Below are positions 5,131-39,162 of a stretch of 64,000 nucleotides of DNA, one piece after another. Below the pieces are notes generated by a model, which ran no database searches, was not told the origin of the DNA, and saw only the letters and a list, made by a program, of their open reading frames with translations. Source of the DNA: a virus; the IMG/VR virus record IMGVR_UViG_3300028024_000105, positions 32,811-96,810 of that record; one strand, written 5' to 3'. Position 1 is the stretch's first letter, and each line of letters starts with the position of its first letter. A program made the translations under genes and the position numbers.

Positions 5131-5281
5131 TCGGCAATCCAACATACCTGCGCCCCAGCGTCCTACTGGGCATGCACTTCTGAGTGGACGAACTCCGGCA
5201 GGCGGCGCCTGTCGTGGTTGCGATGATCGCGGCGGCCCGCGTGTGCTACTGCTGGCTCCGCGACAAGATCAAGGGGAAGCC

Positions 5282-5497
5282 GTGACCGATCTGTGCTGGC
5301 GCGATGACCTGCAGCTCCTAGAGCTGGCTGCGAAGGCGGTCTGCCTTCCCTGCAGGCAGTTGATGCCACTCAAGAATCAGAACGTCCACGAGGTCGCGCC
5401 CAACGGCATCAGCGTCTTTTGCTCGGCCGCACCGATCAACGAGCTGATGGAGATCCGTATGATCACGGGAGTTCCCGGGGCCTGGTGGTCGTGCTGA
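5282..5497 (+). CDS. hypothetical protein with Cys/His ligands
   Basis: CLPC...H...C; GTGA overlap. Confidence 0.5.
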   Translation: MTDLCWRDDLQLLELAAKAVCLPCRQLMPLKNQNVHEVAPNGISVFCSAAPINELMEIRMITGVPGAWWSC

Positions 5498-5799
5498 ACA
5501 GAATTCGCGCCAGCCAATCCATCCGACAGCCTGCCCTGATCGTGCTGGAGGCTCTGTTGATGGGCATGCCCATCAAGATCGGCAAGGACGAGTACCATCT
5601 CAACGACGGCGTCTTCGGAGTCCGTCGAACCCGCCACACCATCGGCAGGCCCGAGCTGGACGAGGAAGTCTTGCTCCGCGTCGATGTCACCATCCCCGGA
5701 TTCATCCACATGTGTGAGAAGCTCTCGCCGCAGGAGCTGCTCGAGATCGCCGCGAACATCGGCCTGAATCGGGTGAAATCGAATAGGCGCCGAATCTAG
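5491..5799 (+). CDS. hypothetical protein
   Basis: GTG start, phage codon bias. Confidence 0.6.
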   Translation: MLNRIRASQSIRQPALIVLEALLMGMPIKIGKDEYHLNDGVFGVRRTRHTIGRPELDEEVLLRVDVTIPGFIHMCEKLSPQELLEIAANIGLNRVKSNRRRI

Positions 5800-5828
5800 G
5801 AAACGGATAGGCGGCAGGGACGTCTTAT
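5800..5828 (+). promoter_or_regulatory. class I (ECF-type) promoter GAAAC-N16-CGTCTTA
   Basis: Member of a recurring GTAAC-N16-CGTC motif family; overlapped by the palindrome TATCTGC-aca-GCAGATA. Confidence 0.65.
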
Positions 5829-5864
5829 CTGCACAGCAGATACGATCAGAAAGGAAGGCCGCAG

Positions 5865-6041
5865 ATGAATCCGAATCAGAGCGAGAACCTGAAGCAGCAG
5901 CACGAGCGGAACGAGGCCGAGATCGCGCGTGGCGAAGCGGAGTATCGGCGTTCCATCGAGGCCCAGTACGAAGGCGGCGACGGCTTCGCCCCGGCGCATG
6001 ATCCTGAGTGTTGCGACTGCGAAGAGTGCCGTTTTTCGTAA
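5865..6041 (+). CDS. small hypothetical protein (58 aa, C-terminal HDPECCDCEEC)
   Basis: Strong SD (AGAAAGGAAGG); below the ORF-track cutoff, translated by hand. Confidence 0.6.
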   Translation: MNPNQSENLKQQHERNEAEIARGEAEYRRSIEAQYEGGDGFAPAHDPECCDCEECRFS

Positions 6042-6056
6042 GACGGCAAGAACCAT

Positions 6057-6273
6057 GACTCCACTGAGTGGGGAGCCTCTGGTGCTGGGATCGCATCCCA
6101 CCTAGGCCACGGCCGGACTCTGGGTAGCCAATCCTGGGTCCAGATCGCGAGTGGACTGGGCGACAGAGAATAAGCGCCCCCGGGATTGCACGAGTTCTAG
6201 ACTCCCGTGCAAGAGCAAGGGTGACGAAACCCCGCCTGATGGCGGGCGAAAAGGCTCCCCACTCAGTGGATTC
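6057..6273 (+). ncRNA. candidate structured ncRNA, multi-branch with a perfect 19-bp closing stem
   Basis: 6060-6078 TCCACTGAGTGGGGAGCCT is the exact reverse complement of 6252-6270; at least 5 internal hairpins; intergenic. Confidence 0.65.
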
Positions 6274-6301
6274 GACAAGGTAAAGAGAAGGAATACGATC
6301 T

Positions 6302-6478
6302 ATGCCGAAACGCGATGGATTGGTCGATGCCGCCAAAGCTGCGATTGACGAGGTCTTCGGCGACACCAGCGTCAGCAAGGAGCAGACCCTGGATCGGATG
6401 AACGAACTCAGCAACCACATCGAGTCGTCGATTAGCTGCCTGGAGGAAGACATCAAGCGCGAGGCCCGGGACGAGTAG
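6302..6478 (+). CDS. small hypothetical protein (58 aa)
   Basis: SD GAAGGA; MPKRDGLVDAAKAAIDEVFGDTSVSKEQTL... Confidence 0.65.
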   Translation: MPKRDGLVDAAKAAIDEVFGDTSVSKEQTLDRMNELSNHIESSISCLEEDIKREARDE

Positions 6479-6497
6479 ACGTGCGAAGGAGGAGTCG

Positions 6498-6794
6498 ATG
6501 AAGAAGCCCATTATCCGGACCGTCCAAGGCATGCGGATCATCACGTGGCCGCAGACCGACGGCGGCACGCACATCGAGGTCTGCCCGTTCAAGGACGAGG
6601 ACCTGCATTCGGTCACGATCTACCAGCACGCGAGCGTCACGCTGTGGGGCCGCAAGAAGGTCGACAAGGCCGAGGTCAACTGGGGCACCTGGGGCCCGGA
6701 AACGCCCCGGCGCGCTCGGCAGTTCGCGCGGGCCGTGCGGCTGGCCAGCACCATGGCAGACGAGATCAACGCCAAGATGGTGGTGACGACGTGA
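6498..6794 (+). CDS. hypothetical protein
   Basis: SD AAGGAGGAG. Confidence 0.7.
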   Translation: MKKPIIRTVQGMRIITWPQTDGGTHIEVCPFKDEDLHSVTIYQHASVTLWGRKKVDKAEVNWGTWGPETPRRARQFARAVRLASTMADEINAKMVVTT

Positions 6795-7000
6795 ACCGCG
6801 AGCCGGTCCAGTCGTCGAACGTCGTCTCCGTGGGCTACGACGCCCTGGGCGAGATCCTCGAGATCGAGTTCAAAGGCGGCGCCGTCTACCAGTACAAGCA
6901 GGTTCCGCTGCACATGTACGAGCAGCTCAAGGCGTCCGAGTCGGTCGGCTCGTTCATCGCCGGGCAGATCAAGCCGAACTACAACTGCGTGCGGATGTGA
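6791..7000 (+). CDS. KTSC domain protein
   Basis: VQSSNVVSVGYD...LEIEFKGGAVYQYKQVP...Y..L..SESVGSF. Confidence 0.9.
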   Translation: MNREPVQSSNVVSVGYDALGEILEIEFKGGAVYQYKQVPLHMYEQLKASESVGSFIAGQIKPNYNCVRM

Positions 7001-13980: not shown

Positions 13981-14210
13981 GAGCGAGAAGCCGACGTAAC
14001 CCGGGGCTGCACCTGTACGTAGCTGCGCACCGTACAGCAGGGCCTGCCAATACCGGGGTACATCGCTCAAAGACAGCTCGTCGGGCGCGAACGCGGGCGA
14101 AAACGGCCGTAGCGTGACAGCCGGAGAGACGGCAAAAATTCGCCCTGGTGGTGGCTTTCTGCTGCTTCACCACCTTCGCCGCGTTGGAAGCCGAGCAGCG
14201 TCACGACGCG
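13981..14210 (+). ncRNA. candidate structured ncRNA or long structured leader
   Basis: Starts exactly at the +1 predicted from CGTCCTAC (13968-13975); nested helices GAGCGA/TCGCTC, CTGTACG/CGTACAG, AACGCGG/CCGCGTT, GGTGGTG/CACCACC. Confidence 0.6.
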
Positions 14211-14245
14211 GACAGGGTTGGAATCGTGGAAACGGAGTAGTGGTC

Positions 14246-14440
14246 ATGGGCGTCCCATCAACCGATGCCAAACCACCGTGCAGCGAATGCGGGAAGCCCT
14301 CCATTTCGATGTGTCCGTACTGCAAGCTCTACGTCCATCAGGGTTTCGGCCTACACAACGGCAACTGCAGCGGAAAGCACGAGGCCAAGTGCTCCGGGGC
14401 TCGATGGTCCCGCGATTCCGACCAGTCCAAGCAGGTGTGA
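14246..14440 (+). CDS. small Zn-finger protein
   Basis: CSECG..CPYC...H...C..HE.KC; SD GGAG. Confidence 0.6.
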   Translation: MGVPSTDAKPPCSECGKPSISMCPYCKLYVHQGFGLHNGNCSGKHEAKCSGARWSRDSDQSKQV

Positions 14441-15363
14441 TCCATCTCCAGCGTCCGGACGACTTTCTGAAGGACTACGACGAGTCCAAGCACCCGCGCG
14501 ACGAGCGCGGACGTTGGGCATCGGGCGGCAGCGGAGGGGCATCGAGTCCGGACATCTCGCCTGGCTCGCGCACCCTCCCTTCCGTCATGCGGGAGGCGAG
14601 CGGACACCCCAACAAGGTGGACATCGAGCGCCTGGGCGACGAGACCACGAGCGTCGGCACGGTCTACAAGGCCACCTTCAAGGACGGCAGCAAGGCCGTC
14701 TACAAACCCGAGAAGGGGAACGGCTACACGACCACGGGCTTGGACGAGCAGGACAACGAAGTTCAGGTCAAGCTCCGGCGCGACATGGACACCAGCGTGC
14801 CCCAGTACAAGAAGGAGCTGGCCACGATGGAGATTGACCGGGAACTCGGATTCAACCGAGTGCCGCACGTTGAGGTCGTGGATTACGGCCACGGGCTCGG
14901 GCATGCGCAGGCGTTCATCGAGGGCGAGGTCGCGGCCAATGTCGACTACAACACGGTGTCCAACGACGTGTTGACGGGCGCGAGCATGCAGCAGGTCGCA
15001 GCCCTAGACATGATCACCGGGAACACGGACCGGCACTTCGGAAACTTCATGCTGGGCCGGGACGACGATCAGTGGTACGCCATCGACAACGGTCTGACGT
15101 TCCCCGACAAGAACGGCCAGTTCAACAGCGTGCCGGTCCGGACGTTGGGCAAGGGCGGTGTCTCGATCCACGAGAGCGTGAAGGCGTCGCTCGCGAAGTT
15201 CACGCCGGAGAAGCTCGACGTCATCATGTCGCGCAACGGTATCGGCAAAGCCGCGCGCGAGCAGGCGAAGGCTCGCCTGAACATATTGAAGACCAAGAGT
15301 ACCTGGACGGGCGTGGCGCATGAGATGATCGCCTACAACCCCTCAAATGGAATTGAGTTCTGA
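14437..15363 (+). CDS. PI3/4-kinase-like (HipA-related fold) kinase with N-terminal HPR peptide
   Basis: AVYKP, KKELA, LGFNRVP, AQAFIEG, LDMITGNTDRHFGNFM, AIDNGLTFP; GTCCAAG-N5-GTG start. Confidence 0.85.
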   Translation: MIHLQRPDDFLKDYDESKHPRDERGRWASGGSGGASSPDISPGSRTLPSVMREASGHPNKVDIERLGDETTSVGTVYKATFKDGSKAVYKPEKGNGYTTTGLDEQDNEVQVKLRRDMDTSVPQYKKELATMEIDRELGFNRVPHVEVVDYGHGLGHAQAFIEGEVAANVDYNTVSNDVLTGASMQQVAALDMITGNTDRHFGNFMLGRDDDQWYAIDNGLTFPDKNGQFNSVPVRTLGKGGVSIHESVKASLAKFTPEKLDVIMSRNGIGKAAREQAKARLNILKTKSTWTGVAHEMIAYNPSNGIEF

Positions 15364-24149: not shown

Positions 24150-24566
24150 ATGAGCGGTCACATCCTTGGCGACATCTCTTCCCAGAAACTCCCCGAGCGA
24201 TTCAGCGCGAGCTACTTCTTCGAGCGCGACTGTTGGATCGACTGCCGGGTTCCTGAGATGATCACCATCGACCCCACGGCCGAGATCGGCTGGGAGGTCA
24301 AGATGGTCTGCATGTCGCACGACATCAACCCCGGTATGTTCGGCCGCCTGGTCGGACGCCCCATCAAGATCGGCGCAAAAGCCTTCATCGCGGGGTTCGC
24401 GCTGTTGTACAATTGCGAGATCGGCGAAGGTGCCGTCGTCGCCGTGGGCTCGGTGGTGAGAAGCCAGAAGGTCGAGCCCTGGACGGTTGTGGCCGGGAAT
24501 CCGGCCGTGCCCGTGAAGCGCTACGACTGGGGCCTGAAGAAGTGGGTCCCGATCCCGCCCCCGTAG
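24150..24566 (+). CDS. hexapeptide-repeat (LbH) acyl/acetyltransferase
   Basis: CMSHD...PIKIGAKAFIA...EIGEGAVVAVGSVV...VVAGNPA; GTCCAAG-N5-ATG. Confidence 0.88.
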   Translation: MSGHILGDISSQKLPERFSASYFFERDCWIDCRVPEMITIDPTAEIGWEVKMVCMSHDINPGMFGRLVGRPIKIGAKAFIAGFALLYNCEIGEGAVVAVGSVVRSQKVEPWTVVAGNPAVPVKRYDWGLKKWVPIPPP

Positions 24567-24633
24567 GTCAATTGGATAGACCATCCGGTTTCTACCCGGA
24601 TAGTTGCAGGTTCGAGTCCTGCCGGGGGTACCA
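24557..24633 (+). tRNA. tRNA-Arg(UCU)
   Basis: Acceptor GCCCCCG/CGGGGGT, D arm, anticodon stem TCCGG-ttTCTac-CCGGA, T arm GCAGG-TTCGAGT-CCTGC, encoded CCA. Confidence 0.92.
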
Positions 24634-31862: not shown

Positions 31863-32213
31863 AGGTCGTGGCGCCGCGTCCTACAGAGCGTCGGAGGAAA
31901 TCATGAGCAATCGGCATCCGAGGCGTCGCAACAAGATCAAGCCCTTCCCGATGACGTCGCGCGACGTGATCTGCGCACAGTGCGGTAAGGCCACCAATCG
32001 CAAGAAGACCAAGGCCATCGACCGGGGCGAGGGCAAGGCCACCCCGAGTCGCGTCTGCAGACCCGCCTGCGAGAAGTCATAGAACATGACATTCTTCCAA
32101 CGGGTCTGGTGCCGCCTGTTCGGCCATCGCCTGAACTACTTCGCGTGGCGGTTCCACAACGACACAGTCTGTTGGCGGTGCGGGGTCGATACTACCAGCG
32201 AAAAGGGCAAGAC

Positions 32214-36243: not shown

Positions 36244-39162
36244 ATGCGGTACGTGCAGTTCCTGAAGGACCAGTTCCAGAACTTCGTCAACGGGGTGCCG
36301 CGTGAGCAGGTCGAAGAGACCGTCATCGCCCTTCGAACCCCCGTCGCGAAAGCGAAGAAATCCCAGCCGCAGGCTTCCGACGATCCGATCTTCGACGATC
36401 TGCGCACGCCCATGGTGGCAGAGCGCTACACCGAGGCGGACCTTCGGGACTTCCTGAACCTCTACTCCTCGCACACCTGGACGTTCCGCTGTGCCAACAC
36501 CATCGCCACGGCAGCGGCGACGGTCGATTTCGTCTTCAAGAAGGGCAAGGACGAGATCGAGGAAGAGGACCGGAGCGGCTTCCTGAAGCAGCCCAACTTC
36601 TTCCAGACCTGGTACGATCTGTTCGAGACCACCTTCCTGCATCTCGAGCTGGCGGGCAACTCGTTCTGGGAGATCCAGCGGCAGGACAAGGAGATCGTCA
36701 ACATCTTCCCGCTGCGCCCGGACCGTATCACCATCGTGCCGGATGCCAAGAAGCGCGTCCTGCAGTACGAGTACAACGTCAACGGCGAGATCATCCGCTA
36801 CGAGCCCGAAGAGATCCTGCACCTGAAGTACGCTGACGCGAAGGCCGAGTTCTGGGGCATCGCGCCCGCGTCGGCCGCGCGCAATACGATCACGCTGGAT
36901 TTCTACGCCATCGCCTGGAACAAGGACTTCTTCAACCACGGCGCCGAGCCCGGCTTCGTTCTCGAGACCGAGAACACGCTGACGGACATGGCGTTCAACC
37001 GGCTCCAGAAGCTCTGGGGCAAACGCCATCGCGGCAAGCCGCACGAGTTCGCGCTGCTCGAAGAGGGCCTGAAGTACAAGGCCGTCACGTCGAATCACGC
37101 GGACATGCAGTATCTGGAGGGCCGAGACAAGAACGCCGAGGAGATCGGTGGCGCCTACAACGTGCCCCCGTTCTTCCTGGGTCGGGACGGTGGCGGCCCG
37201 CCCAACGAGCAGAAGAAGCGACTCTACCAGACGAACGTCATCCCGAAGCTGACGAAGCTCGGCAAGTTCCTGAACGCCTTCCTGTTCTCGTCTCAGGGTG
37301 TGCGCATCGACTTCCTCACGAAGTCGCTGCCCATGATCATCGAAGACGAGGAGATCAAGGCGCGCATCGCCCAGTCGAACGTCAACCACGGCATCTGGAC
37401 CCAGAACGAGGCGCGCCACATCGAGTGGGGCATGAAGCCCGTGGCCTGGGGCGACACGTGGTGGCAGTCGGTTGGTCTGTTCGACACTCAGAAGCCCGAG
37501 ACCCGTCCGGTGCAGGGTGGCATCGCCGGGGATTTGCCCGGCAATGCAGGTTCCGGCGCTGGCAAGTCGTCCGGATTCAATCATCCTTCGCAGATTCCGG
37601 CTCCTACTTCGAAGGGCTGCACCTTCGAGTCCGATGGAGTGGACTTCGAGAAGGCCGACGAGATCGGCATGGTCCCCATCCTCAAGATGGAGGTCCGTGA
37701 GCCCGACTGGGCCGACAAGCAGGAAGTCGAGGACTGGCAGCAGTTCATGTTCTGGAAGCAGCTCGTCGGACCGGACGAGCTGGAGCTGCGGCGTCAGTTC
37801 CGTGGCTTCTTCAAGGGACAGGGCGAACGCATCCTGCCGCGCATCGCGCATCTGTGGCCGATGCACAAGGCCGAGGAGAGCGGCGACGCCCGCAAGATCG
37901 CCATCGTGGAGATCCTGAAGCTGCTCTTCGACGAACAGCTCGAGGAGAACGTCCTGCGCTCGTTCATGGTTCCCATCGCCGAGAACTCGGTCCGCAAGTA
38001 CGGCCAGAATCTGCTCACCACCAAGAACATCCCGATCCCCTTCCGCATGAGCGACCCGAACGTGCGGAAGTTCATGGAGAAGTACACCGCGTCGCAGGTC
38101 CGCCACATCAGCGAGACCACCCGGCAGATCCTGAAGGACCAGCTCCTGAAGGCAGCCGACGCGGGCGAGCCCATCAAGGCCGTCCTCGCGCGCGTGCGCG
38201 ATGCGTTCGACGGCAATGTCTCGGTGGCCCGCGCCCAGCGCATCGCGCGGACGGAGCTGGTCACCATGTCCAACAACGCCCGCCTGCTCGCGGCCCAGCA
38301 GTCCGGCGTCCTGACCCAGAAGCGGTGGATCTCCGAGAAGCTCCCCACGACCCGGCAGGAGAAGACCGGCGCCAACCACATCAATATGCACGGCATCCAG
38401 ATGGCCATCAACCAGCCGTTCGAGGTCCCCAACCGCAAGGGCGGCGTCGACCTGATGGACGTCCCTGGCGCCAACTCCGGATCGGCCGAGAACGTCTGCA
38501 ACTGCGTCTGCGTCGCCAGCTTCTCCGGCAATCGCGACGCCTTCGCCGACCTGATCGCGCCCCCCGACGAGGTCCCGCCGGACGCCAAAGTGATCGGCAA
38601 GTTGGCCGATCAGATTGCTGCCCTGGAGAAGTGCAACGCCGAGCTGGCCGAGCAGCTTCAGACTCTTCTCGCCGACGCCGAGACGGAGCCGGAACCCGAT
38701 CCCGAACCGCCAGCGCCCCCGGCTCCCCCCGCGCCGAACGTCACGAACGTGACCGTGAACGTGGCGCCGTCGCCCGCGCCCAACATCACCAACCAGATCG
38801 ACGTCAAGCCCTCCGATGTGAAGGCGCCGGACGTGAACGTGGAAGTCGACGTGAATCCGACCCCGATCAACGTGGAGGTCGAGGCACCCGACGTGCACAT
38901 CGACAACCACAATCAGATCGACGTCGAGCCCGCTCCCGTGCAGGTCGACAAGGCCGCCCCGCAGCCGGTGATCGTCAACGTGCCCGCGCCCATCGTCACC
39001 GTTGAGGTCCACCCCGAGATCAAGGCTCCGGACGTGCACGTGGAGGTCAATCCCGAGATCAAGATCCCGGCAACGACCGAGAAGACCACGATCATCCGCG
39101 ACCCGAAGACCCGCGAGATCAAGGGTAGCATCAAGGAAATCACTCCGGAGAACCCGGCGTGA
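36244..39162 (+). CDS. HK97-family portal fused to a MuF-like head morphogenesis domain and a Pro/Val-rich tail
   Basis: Portal: LKQPN, LELAGNSF, PLRPD, EILHLK, GIAP, FFNHGAEPG, LEEGLKY, YNVPP. MuF: RAQRIARTE, KRWIS, NCVC. Confidence 0.9.
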   Translation: MRYVQFLKDQFQNFVNGVPREQVEETVIALRTPVAKAKKSQPQASDDPIFDDLRTPMVAERYTEADLRDFLNLYSSHTWTFRCANTIATAAATVDFVFKKGKDEIEEEDRSGFLKQPNFFQTWYDLFETTFLHLELAGNSFWEIQRQDKEIVNIFPLRPDRITIVPDAKKRVLQYEYNVNGEIIRYEPEEILHLKYADAKAEFWGIAPASAARNTITLDFYAIAWNKDFFNHGAEPGFVLETENTLTDMAFNRLQKLWGKRHRGKPHEFALLEEGLKYKAVTSNHADMQYLEGRDKNAEEIGGAYNVPPFFLGRDGGGPPNEQKKRLYQTNVIPKLTKLGKFLNAFLFSSQGVRIDFLTKSLPMIIEDEEIKARIAQSNVNHGIWTQNEARHIEWGMKPVAWGDTWWQSVGLFDTQKPETRPVQGGIAGDLPGNAGSGAGKSSGFNHPSQIPAPTSKGCTFESDGVDFEKADEIGMVPILKMEVREPDWADKQEVEDWQQFMFWKQLVGPDELELRRQFRGFFKGQGERILPRIAHLWPMHKAEESGDARKIAIVEILKLLFDEQLEENVLRSFMVPIAENSVRKYGQNLLTTKNIPIPFRMSDPNVRKFMEKYTASQVRHISETTRQILKDQLLKAADAGEPIKAVLARVRDAFDGNVSVARAQRIARTELVTMSNNARLLAAQQSGVLTQKRWISEKLPTTRQEKTGANHINMHGIQMAINQPFEVPNRKGGVDLMDVPGANSGSAENVCNCVCVASFSGNRDAFADLIAPPDEVPPDAKVIGKLADQIAALEKCNAELAEQLQTLLADAETEPEPDPEPPAPPAPPAPNVTNVTVNVAPSPAPNITNQIDVKPSDVKAPDVNVEVDVNPTPINVEVEAPDVHIDNHNQIDVEPAPVQVDKAAPQPVIVNVPAPIVTVEVHPEIKAPDVHVEVNPEIKIPATTEKTTIIRDPKTREIKGSIKEITPENPA

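Follow-up and report, generated by a model that had tools for sequence, protein, structure and literature searches.

The sequence under study belongs to a 96.8-kb record of an uncultured soil phage (63% GC), which was detected in a single soil metagenome run and is estimated by CheckV to be 73% complete. The window, a 64-kb stretch that was analysed as a whole, corresponds to bases 32811-96810 of this record, and coordinates refer to the window unless they are marked as genome coordinates. Within it, two short ORFs are separated by a non-coding gap that holds a small element bounded by an inverted repeat (Table 1). The element lies flush between the stop codon of the upstream ORF and the ribosome-binding site of the next one and overlaps neither, with a spacing of 15 nt from the stop codon and of 28 nt to the downstream ATG, the ribosome-binding site falling within the latter. 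The neighbouring genes are all on the + strand and show clear codon periodicity. Upstream of the element they encode an RNA ligase (PF09414, E 8e-25, 3.2 kb away), a methyltransferase, a DUF3310 protein and a MazG-like protein, while the downstream genes give products of 58 and 98 aa and, further on the same side, a KTSC-domain protein is encoded. Both adjoining genes are ORFans, and no DNA-binding domain was detected in the neighbours.

Table 1. Positions of the element, its flanking ORFs and the related features discussed in the text (window coordinates)
Feature	Position	Strand	Remarks
Non-coding gap, 260 nt	6042..6301	+	separates ORF 5865-6041 from ORF 6302-6478
Upstream ORF, 58 codons	5865-6041	+	purine-rich ribosome-binding site
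Downstream ORF, 58 codons	6302-6478	+	purine-rich ribosome-binding site
Left arm	6057..6078	+	perfect core 6060-6078; + strand reads TCCACTGAGTGGGGAGCCT
Right arm	6252..6273	+	perfect core 6252-6270
Interior between arms	6079..6251	+	173 nt, five short hairpins, non-coding
Nearest good upstream CGTCCTAC promoter-like copy	5159..5166	+	putative start of the transcript holding both arms
CGTC(C/T)TAC examples	872, 2870, 5159, 10053, 11300, 16684, 20270, 31115	+	
CGTC(C/T)TAC examples	11258, 13681, 18639, 29566, 33419	-	
Tyrosine integrase, 363 aa	22700-23791		
Candidate recombinase, 243 aa	30434-31165		catalytic domain only; weakly similar to Xer and Fim-type invertases

The composition of the gap is that of non-coding DNA. 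Its GC content is flat across the three codon positions (about 0.6/0.6/0.6), as compared with a GC3 of 0.75-0.96 and a GC2 of 0.33-0.47 in the flanking ORFs, and this absence of codon periodicity agrees with the preliminary description, which had recognized no credible ORF here. No small ORF with a plausible ribosome-binding site is present within the gap, and a long minus-strand ORF that runs through it (5377-6456) was dismissed as a GC-rich antisense artefact.

The arms that bound the element form an unusually long inverted repeat. The 19-bp pairing of 6060-6078 with 6252-6270, by which the element was originally recognized, is exact, the two segments being perfect reverse complements, and the repeat extends outwards to 6057-6273, where 21 of 22 positions are paired and a single mismatch (C6059 versus T6271) is accommodated. 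The closing stem consists of 19 Watson-Crick pairs without a G-U pair and has abrupt ends. No other local perfect inverted repeat in the 64-kb window is as long. In 60 first-order Markov simulations of 64 kb, with arms at most 600 nt apart, the longest perfect repeat measured 11-15 bp, and since even the maximum of 15 bp falls short of the 19 bp observed, the closing repeat is not a product of chance; it is real and non-random. The arm sequence is found once on each side and has no further occurrence in the 96.8-kb genome, which contains no other local inverted repeat of this type; its remaining long inverted repeats represent one promoter-plus-leader sequence copied on opposite strands, kilobases apart. 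Each arm additionally carries a small dyad (CCACT-N-AGTGG), and the two dyad centres are 198 bp or about 19 helical turns apart, as counted from the coordinates. The dyad itself is not significant, as 6% of random 22-mers drawn from the genome have a run of at least 5 and the hairpin-energy p value is 0.086.

The element had been portrayed in the preliminary description as a multi-branched structured RNA. All five internal hairpins on which this portrayal drew (6086-6100, 6115-6141, 6158-6179, 6186-6212 and 6231-6246) are present, and the structured RNA that they were taken to compose found no support, the interior folding no better than shuffled sequence. As a 231-nt element the locus has a fold z of -4.5 on both strands, and the gap (6042-6301) has the most negative fold z among genome gaps of up to 480 nt. 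When the arms are left out, the z of the remaining 173 nt is -1.0 on the + strand, where 32 of 200 shuffles fold equally well, and +0.19 on the - strand. Because the interior falls to chance level once the arms are removed, the strong fold z of the element and of the gap is owed to the arms alone. The internal hairpins are no more than 63% GC sequence yields by chance, and the interior bears no sign of selection for structure. The arm helix is retained in the minimum-energy and centroid folds, whether these are computed for the 231-nt element or for the 651-nt mRNA context. Weak hints of a preferred strand come from the stem 6115-6120/6136-6141, which includes a U-G pair on the + strand that would be an A-C mismatch on the - strand, and from the slightly better fold of the interior on the + strand.

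No known RNA family was recognized at the element. Its initial reading as a sequence with no tRNA, tmRNA, SRP RNA or hammerhead core was borne out by ARAGORN and Rfam, which placed none of these at the element and found no ribozyme. The comparison with Rfam that the preliminary description had proposed gave no match at the element at the gathering threshold (Rfam 15), and at E values of up to 10 the region 5800-6500 gave only three chance-level matches of no more than 15.5 bits; within the window, Rfam matches are limited to a tRNA at 24557 and a CyVA-1 motif at 14142. Individual candidates were rejected as well. At 6236-6251, CUGAUG...GAAA recalls a hammerhead, but stem II is missing and Rfam gives no match. 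For a Y RNA (YrlA), ARAGORN reported nothing at 6057-6273, and a TROVE domain is absent from the 96.8-kb record, of which the estimated completeness is 73%. For a retron msr/msd the inverted repeat is present, but the record contains no RVT_1 match.

These results bear directly on the idea that the element is a trans-acting small RNA, excised by way of the closing stem, whose interior is the active part and serves as a decoy, a sponge or an RNA-ligase substrate, perhaps in circularised form. The phage RNA ligase gene upstream would be in keeping with such a role, as would the two tRNAs and the CyVA-1 RNA motif in the genome. ATP-dependent ligases join 5'-phosphate and 3'-hydroxyl ends, as left by RNase III, and ends of that type would thus be suited to the phage enzyme. 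However, the interior that would have to act in trans folds at chance level and resembles no Rfam family even at the relaxed E value, the element has neither a promoter nor a terminator of its own, and no antisense match of at least 14 nt to the rest of the phage genome was found; a Ro/TROVE or reverse transcriptase partner is lacking from the record, and no homologues were obtained. We regard a trans-acting RNA as improbable at this locus, and consider very doubtful the existence of an excised phage RNA, about 190-215 nt long, that acts as a decoy or sponge or is circularised by the Rnl-type RNA ligase and that would constitute a new phage RNA class.

The transcript in which the arms would lie can be tentatively delimited with the help of a recurrent motif. 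CGTC(C/T)TAC (recurrent CGTCCTAC) occurs in about 30 genome copies, where roughly 6 are expected; most copies are located 5 nt before an ATG and have a TTCNAAAT-like element 13 nt upstream. The motif has the appearance of a promoter specific to this phage, serving mRNAs that are leaderless or nearly so. Given the promoter-like copy at 5159 and the absence of any terminator-like site within 5300-7000, both arms are probably contained in one + strand polycistronic transcript. A minus-strand CGTCTTAC at 6045-6038 was judged to be a chance occurrence, having neither the upstream element nor a start codon, and a search with the promoter-plus-start 16-mer returned three chance matches only. Outside the window, on its upstream side, a CGTCCTAC motif and its ATG are enclosed at genome 7440-7530 by an inverted repeat of 13 bp (AATGTCGTACGCG/CGCGTACGACATT), a candidate operator or leader hairpin; the entire 468-nt gap at genome 7190-7657 has a fold z of -4.2.

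We tentatively propose that the element acts as an RNA duplex within an early + strand mRNA and that this duplex is cut by RNase III, separating the cistrons, a reading that is plausible while falling short of probable. When co-transcribed, the arms at 6057-6078 and 6252-6273 would pair into the perfect 19-bp helix, with 21 of 22 positions paired overall, and this double-stranded RNA, about two helical turns long, would be a substrate for host RNase III. Cleavage would sever the message between the 58-codon gene at 5865-6041 and the genes from 6302 onwards, leaving 5'-phosphate and 3'-hydroxyl ends and releasing a fragment of about 190 nt, and the likely outcome would be an altered stability or translation of the flanking cistrons. 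On this view the interior need not fold by itself. What the sequence shows is a non-random repeat in a non-coding gap, among genes that all lie on one strand; that the two arms are co-transcribed, pair in the cell and are cleaved by RNase III, and that any regulation follows, is inferred.

A perfect helix of 19-22 bp within one transcript is a standard bacterial RNase III substrate, and the length that the enzyme calls for (about two turns, some 20 bp or more) is reached here by the 19 perfect pairs and the 2 that follow the mismatch. The far-above-chance repeat and the persistence of its helix in the folds of both the element and the 651-nt context are consistent with a duplex in the mRNA, as are the + strand neighbours on either side of a non-coding gap, the motif at 5159 with no terminator-like site in the interval covered, the flush intergenic position and the hints in favour of the + strand. 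In its layout the element resembles the RNase III stalks of the 16S and 23S rRNA flanks and the RNase III sites of the T7 early mRNA, in which two complementary stretches, far apart in the same transcript, pair over about 20 bp and cleavage separates neighbouring RNAs, in an intergenic position of an early operon as proposed for the element. The likeness is incomplete: in T7 the sites are hairpins that form locally and contain internal loops, whereas the helix of the element is perfect, and the rRNA stalks enclose a functional RNA, whereas the element encloses 173 nt without detectable fold or function and its cleavage is a prediction.

A documented precedent for such a duplex in a co-transcript is provided by the Correia elements of Neisseria, in which a co-transcribed hairpin is bound or cleaved by RNase III and the expression of the adjacent gene is altered (PMC2649163). 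Like the present element, these are small non-coding intergenic units with bounding inverted repeats. Correia elements are, however, multi-copy, have 26-bp repeats, a TA duplication and an IHF site, and can create promoters. The phage element is single-copy, has no duplication and contains no IHF, sigma-54 or DnaA site in its interior, which places it outside the CREE class.

Several features fit less well with an RNase III-sensitive duplex. A stem that is selected for RNA pairing alone usually contains some G-U pairs or bulges, and the 19 Watson-Crick pairs and abrupt ends of the closing stem fit an identity at the DNA level at least equally well. The repeat is the sole such local one in 96.8 kb, so that the phage makes no general use of RNase III stalks. 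The fold energy is equal on both strands, and the element has no homologue. The record (96.8 kb, at the completeness given above) contains neither an RNase III gene nor a serine recombinase.

The perfect identity of the arms and their abrupt ends are typical of recombination sites, and they raise the possibility that the arms are paired DNA sites, either inverted recombination sites between which a tyrosine recombinase flips the 173-bp segment or two operators for a DNA-looping repressor. An invertible segment had also been named as an alternative in the preliminary description. Two tyrosine recombinases are encoded by the phage (the 363-aa integrase and the 243-aa enzyme of Table 1), and each arm has its CCACT-N-AGTGG dyad, at the 198-bp spacing given above. 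In common with invertons such as fimS, which is acted on by FimB/FimE, the locus shows short perfect inverted repeats around a segment of 100-300 bp and a small tyrosine recombinase elsewhere in the genome. Other details fit this assignment less well. The dyad does not rise above the background of the genome, and with a centre of 1 nt it departs from tyrosine recombinase cores, whose spacer measures 6-8 bp. The 243-aa recombinase is 24 kb distant, neither recombinase gene has a sequence resembling the arms in its vicinity, and a serine invertase is missing from the record. Inside the segment, no sigma-70-like, CGTCYTAC or GTCCAAG promoter and no terminator was detected in either orientation, and the ORFan neighbours have no detectable DNA-binding domain. 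One assembled contig, from the probable source run, spans the region in one orientation and without variants, an observation to be read with the proviso that assemblies cannot reveal minor forms. We view a pair of DNA sites as a possibility on the unlikely side.

Two further observations concern the recombinase genes. A palindrome of 16-22 bp is located at 31950-31971, about 800 nt downstream of the 243-aa recombinase. The tRNA-Arg(TCT) gene at 24557-24633 is about 770 nt from the 363-aa integrase, and this proximity suggests that the phage is temperate and that its attachment site is linked to the tRNA gene.

The preliminary description had also proposed a homologue search, which was carried out and returned no relative of the element in phage records, IMG/VR, metagenome contigs or GTDB contigs. 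A distant blastn search of the element against phage records was likewise without a relative. A 17-nt word from the arm is absent from IMG/VR and matches 13 metagenome and 12 GTDB contigs; each of these 25 contigs contains a single arm, and they show no wider similarity to the element and a scattered taxonomy. The 13-nt palindromic core word is present in only 1-2 copies per genome in the five genomes searched, all of which match the arm word. In three unrelated metagenome contigs (L010, L013 and L014), copies of a palindrome, GGTTCCCCACTAAGTGGGGAACC, are spaced 70-90 nt apart in a CATAGCACAGC-like microsatellite (for example L014:2420-2700). This repetition and an Ilumatobacter palindrome were considered as leads to a repeat family; as the core word occurs just once or twice in each of the five genomes checked, both were set aside as chance.

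The distribution of copies is of importance for a third possibility, that the element is a functionless or selfish foldback insertion, either a host-derived MITE-like remnant or a template-switching repeat too young to have decayed. The general form of the element is compatible with such an origin, as inverted repeats of 19-22 bp terminate a small non-coding body that lies between genes and shares the GC content of the genome; the perfect arms imply youth, and ORFan-rich surroundings are expected in a fast-turnover early region. As in the MITEs surveyed in PMC11602168, its terminal repeats exceed 15 bp and its size lies within 50-800 bp. The hallmarks of transposition are lacking, in that no target-site duplication (2-10 bp in MITEs) is seen at any sensible boundary, the flanks reading ...ACCAT(GAC) and (TTC)GACAAG..., and the multiple copies that characterize MITEs were not found: there is no second copy in the phage, no two-armed copy among the 13 metagenome and 12 genome matches, and a core word with only one or two occurrences in each of the five genomes matching the arm word. 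No serine recombinase was found either, although MITEs rely on host enzymes. MITEs are rare in viruses, having been reported in only 0.01% of viral sequences (PMC11602168), and a useless gap of 260 nt would be costly for a densely packed phage. An insertion of this kind seems to us a possibility on the unlikely side, on a par with paired DNA sites.

The surroundings of the element are as isolated as the element itself. The neighbour proteins have no relatives in IMG/VR and none by tblastn against phages; the 98-aa protein and a 126-aa neighbour match only themselves among 5.8 billion proteins, and the 58-aa neighbour has no usable match in the protein atlas. Among the upstream gene products, the RNA ligase has one relative of 33% identity in IMG/VR, encoded by a phage of 41% GC, and the methyltransferase has relatives of 43% in the same collection; no comparable repeat lies near the gene in either case. 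Closer methyltransferases (78% for P0004 and 69% for P0005) are encoded on contigs of 1.2 and 2.9 kb. The element is best described as an intergenic, inverted-repeat-bounded orphan without relatives, most likely an RNase III-sensitive mRNA stem. Taken together, the readings as an unremarkable mRNA-processing stem or as a DNA site make up the probable range of explanations.

The main value of this analysis is corrective: the attractive multi-branched fold is no more than 63% GC sequence yields by chance, and the closing repeat alone needs to be explained. If the RNase III-sensitive stem is real, it would be a further case of early gene expression being shaped in a phage by an RNase III stem of long range, here in a lineage without cultured or sequenced relatives, which would be useful rather than surprising. 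Greater interest would attach to the element only on demonstration that the segment inverts or that it gives rise to a discrete RNA, stable or circular.

Some other features of the genome were recorded in the course of the analysis. A single 972-aa ORF (36244-39162) encodes a portal protein (PF04860) fused to a Mu F-like domain (PF04233); in the collections that were searched, neither this portal protein nor the 627-aa protein encoded upstream has a relative. A tRNA-Ala(TGC) gene at genome 16521-16594 is the sole canonical tRNA identified in that region by Rfam and ARAGORN. The CyVA-1 RNA motif (RF02965) occupies 14142-14218 on the + strand, scoring 49.4 bits where the gathering threshold is 41.4, and ends exactly at the start of an ORF (14218-15363) whose product has a PI3/PI4-kinase-like domain.
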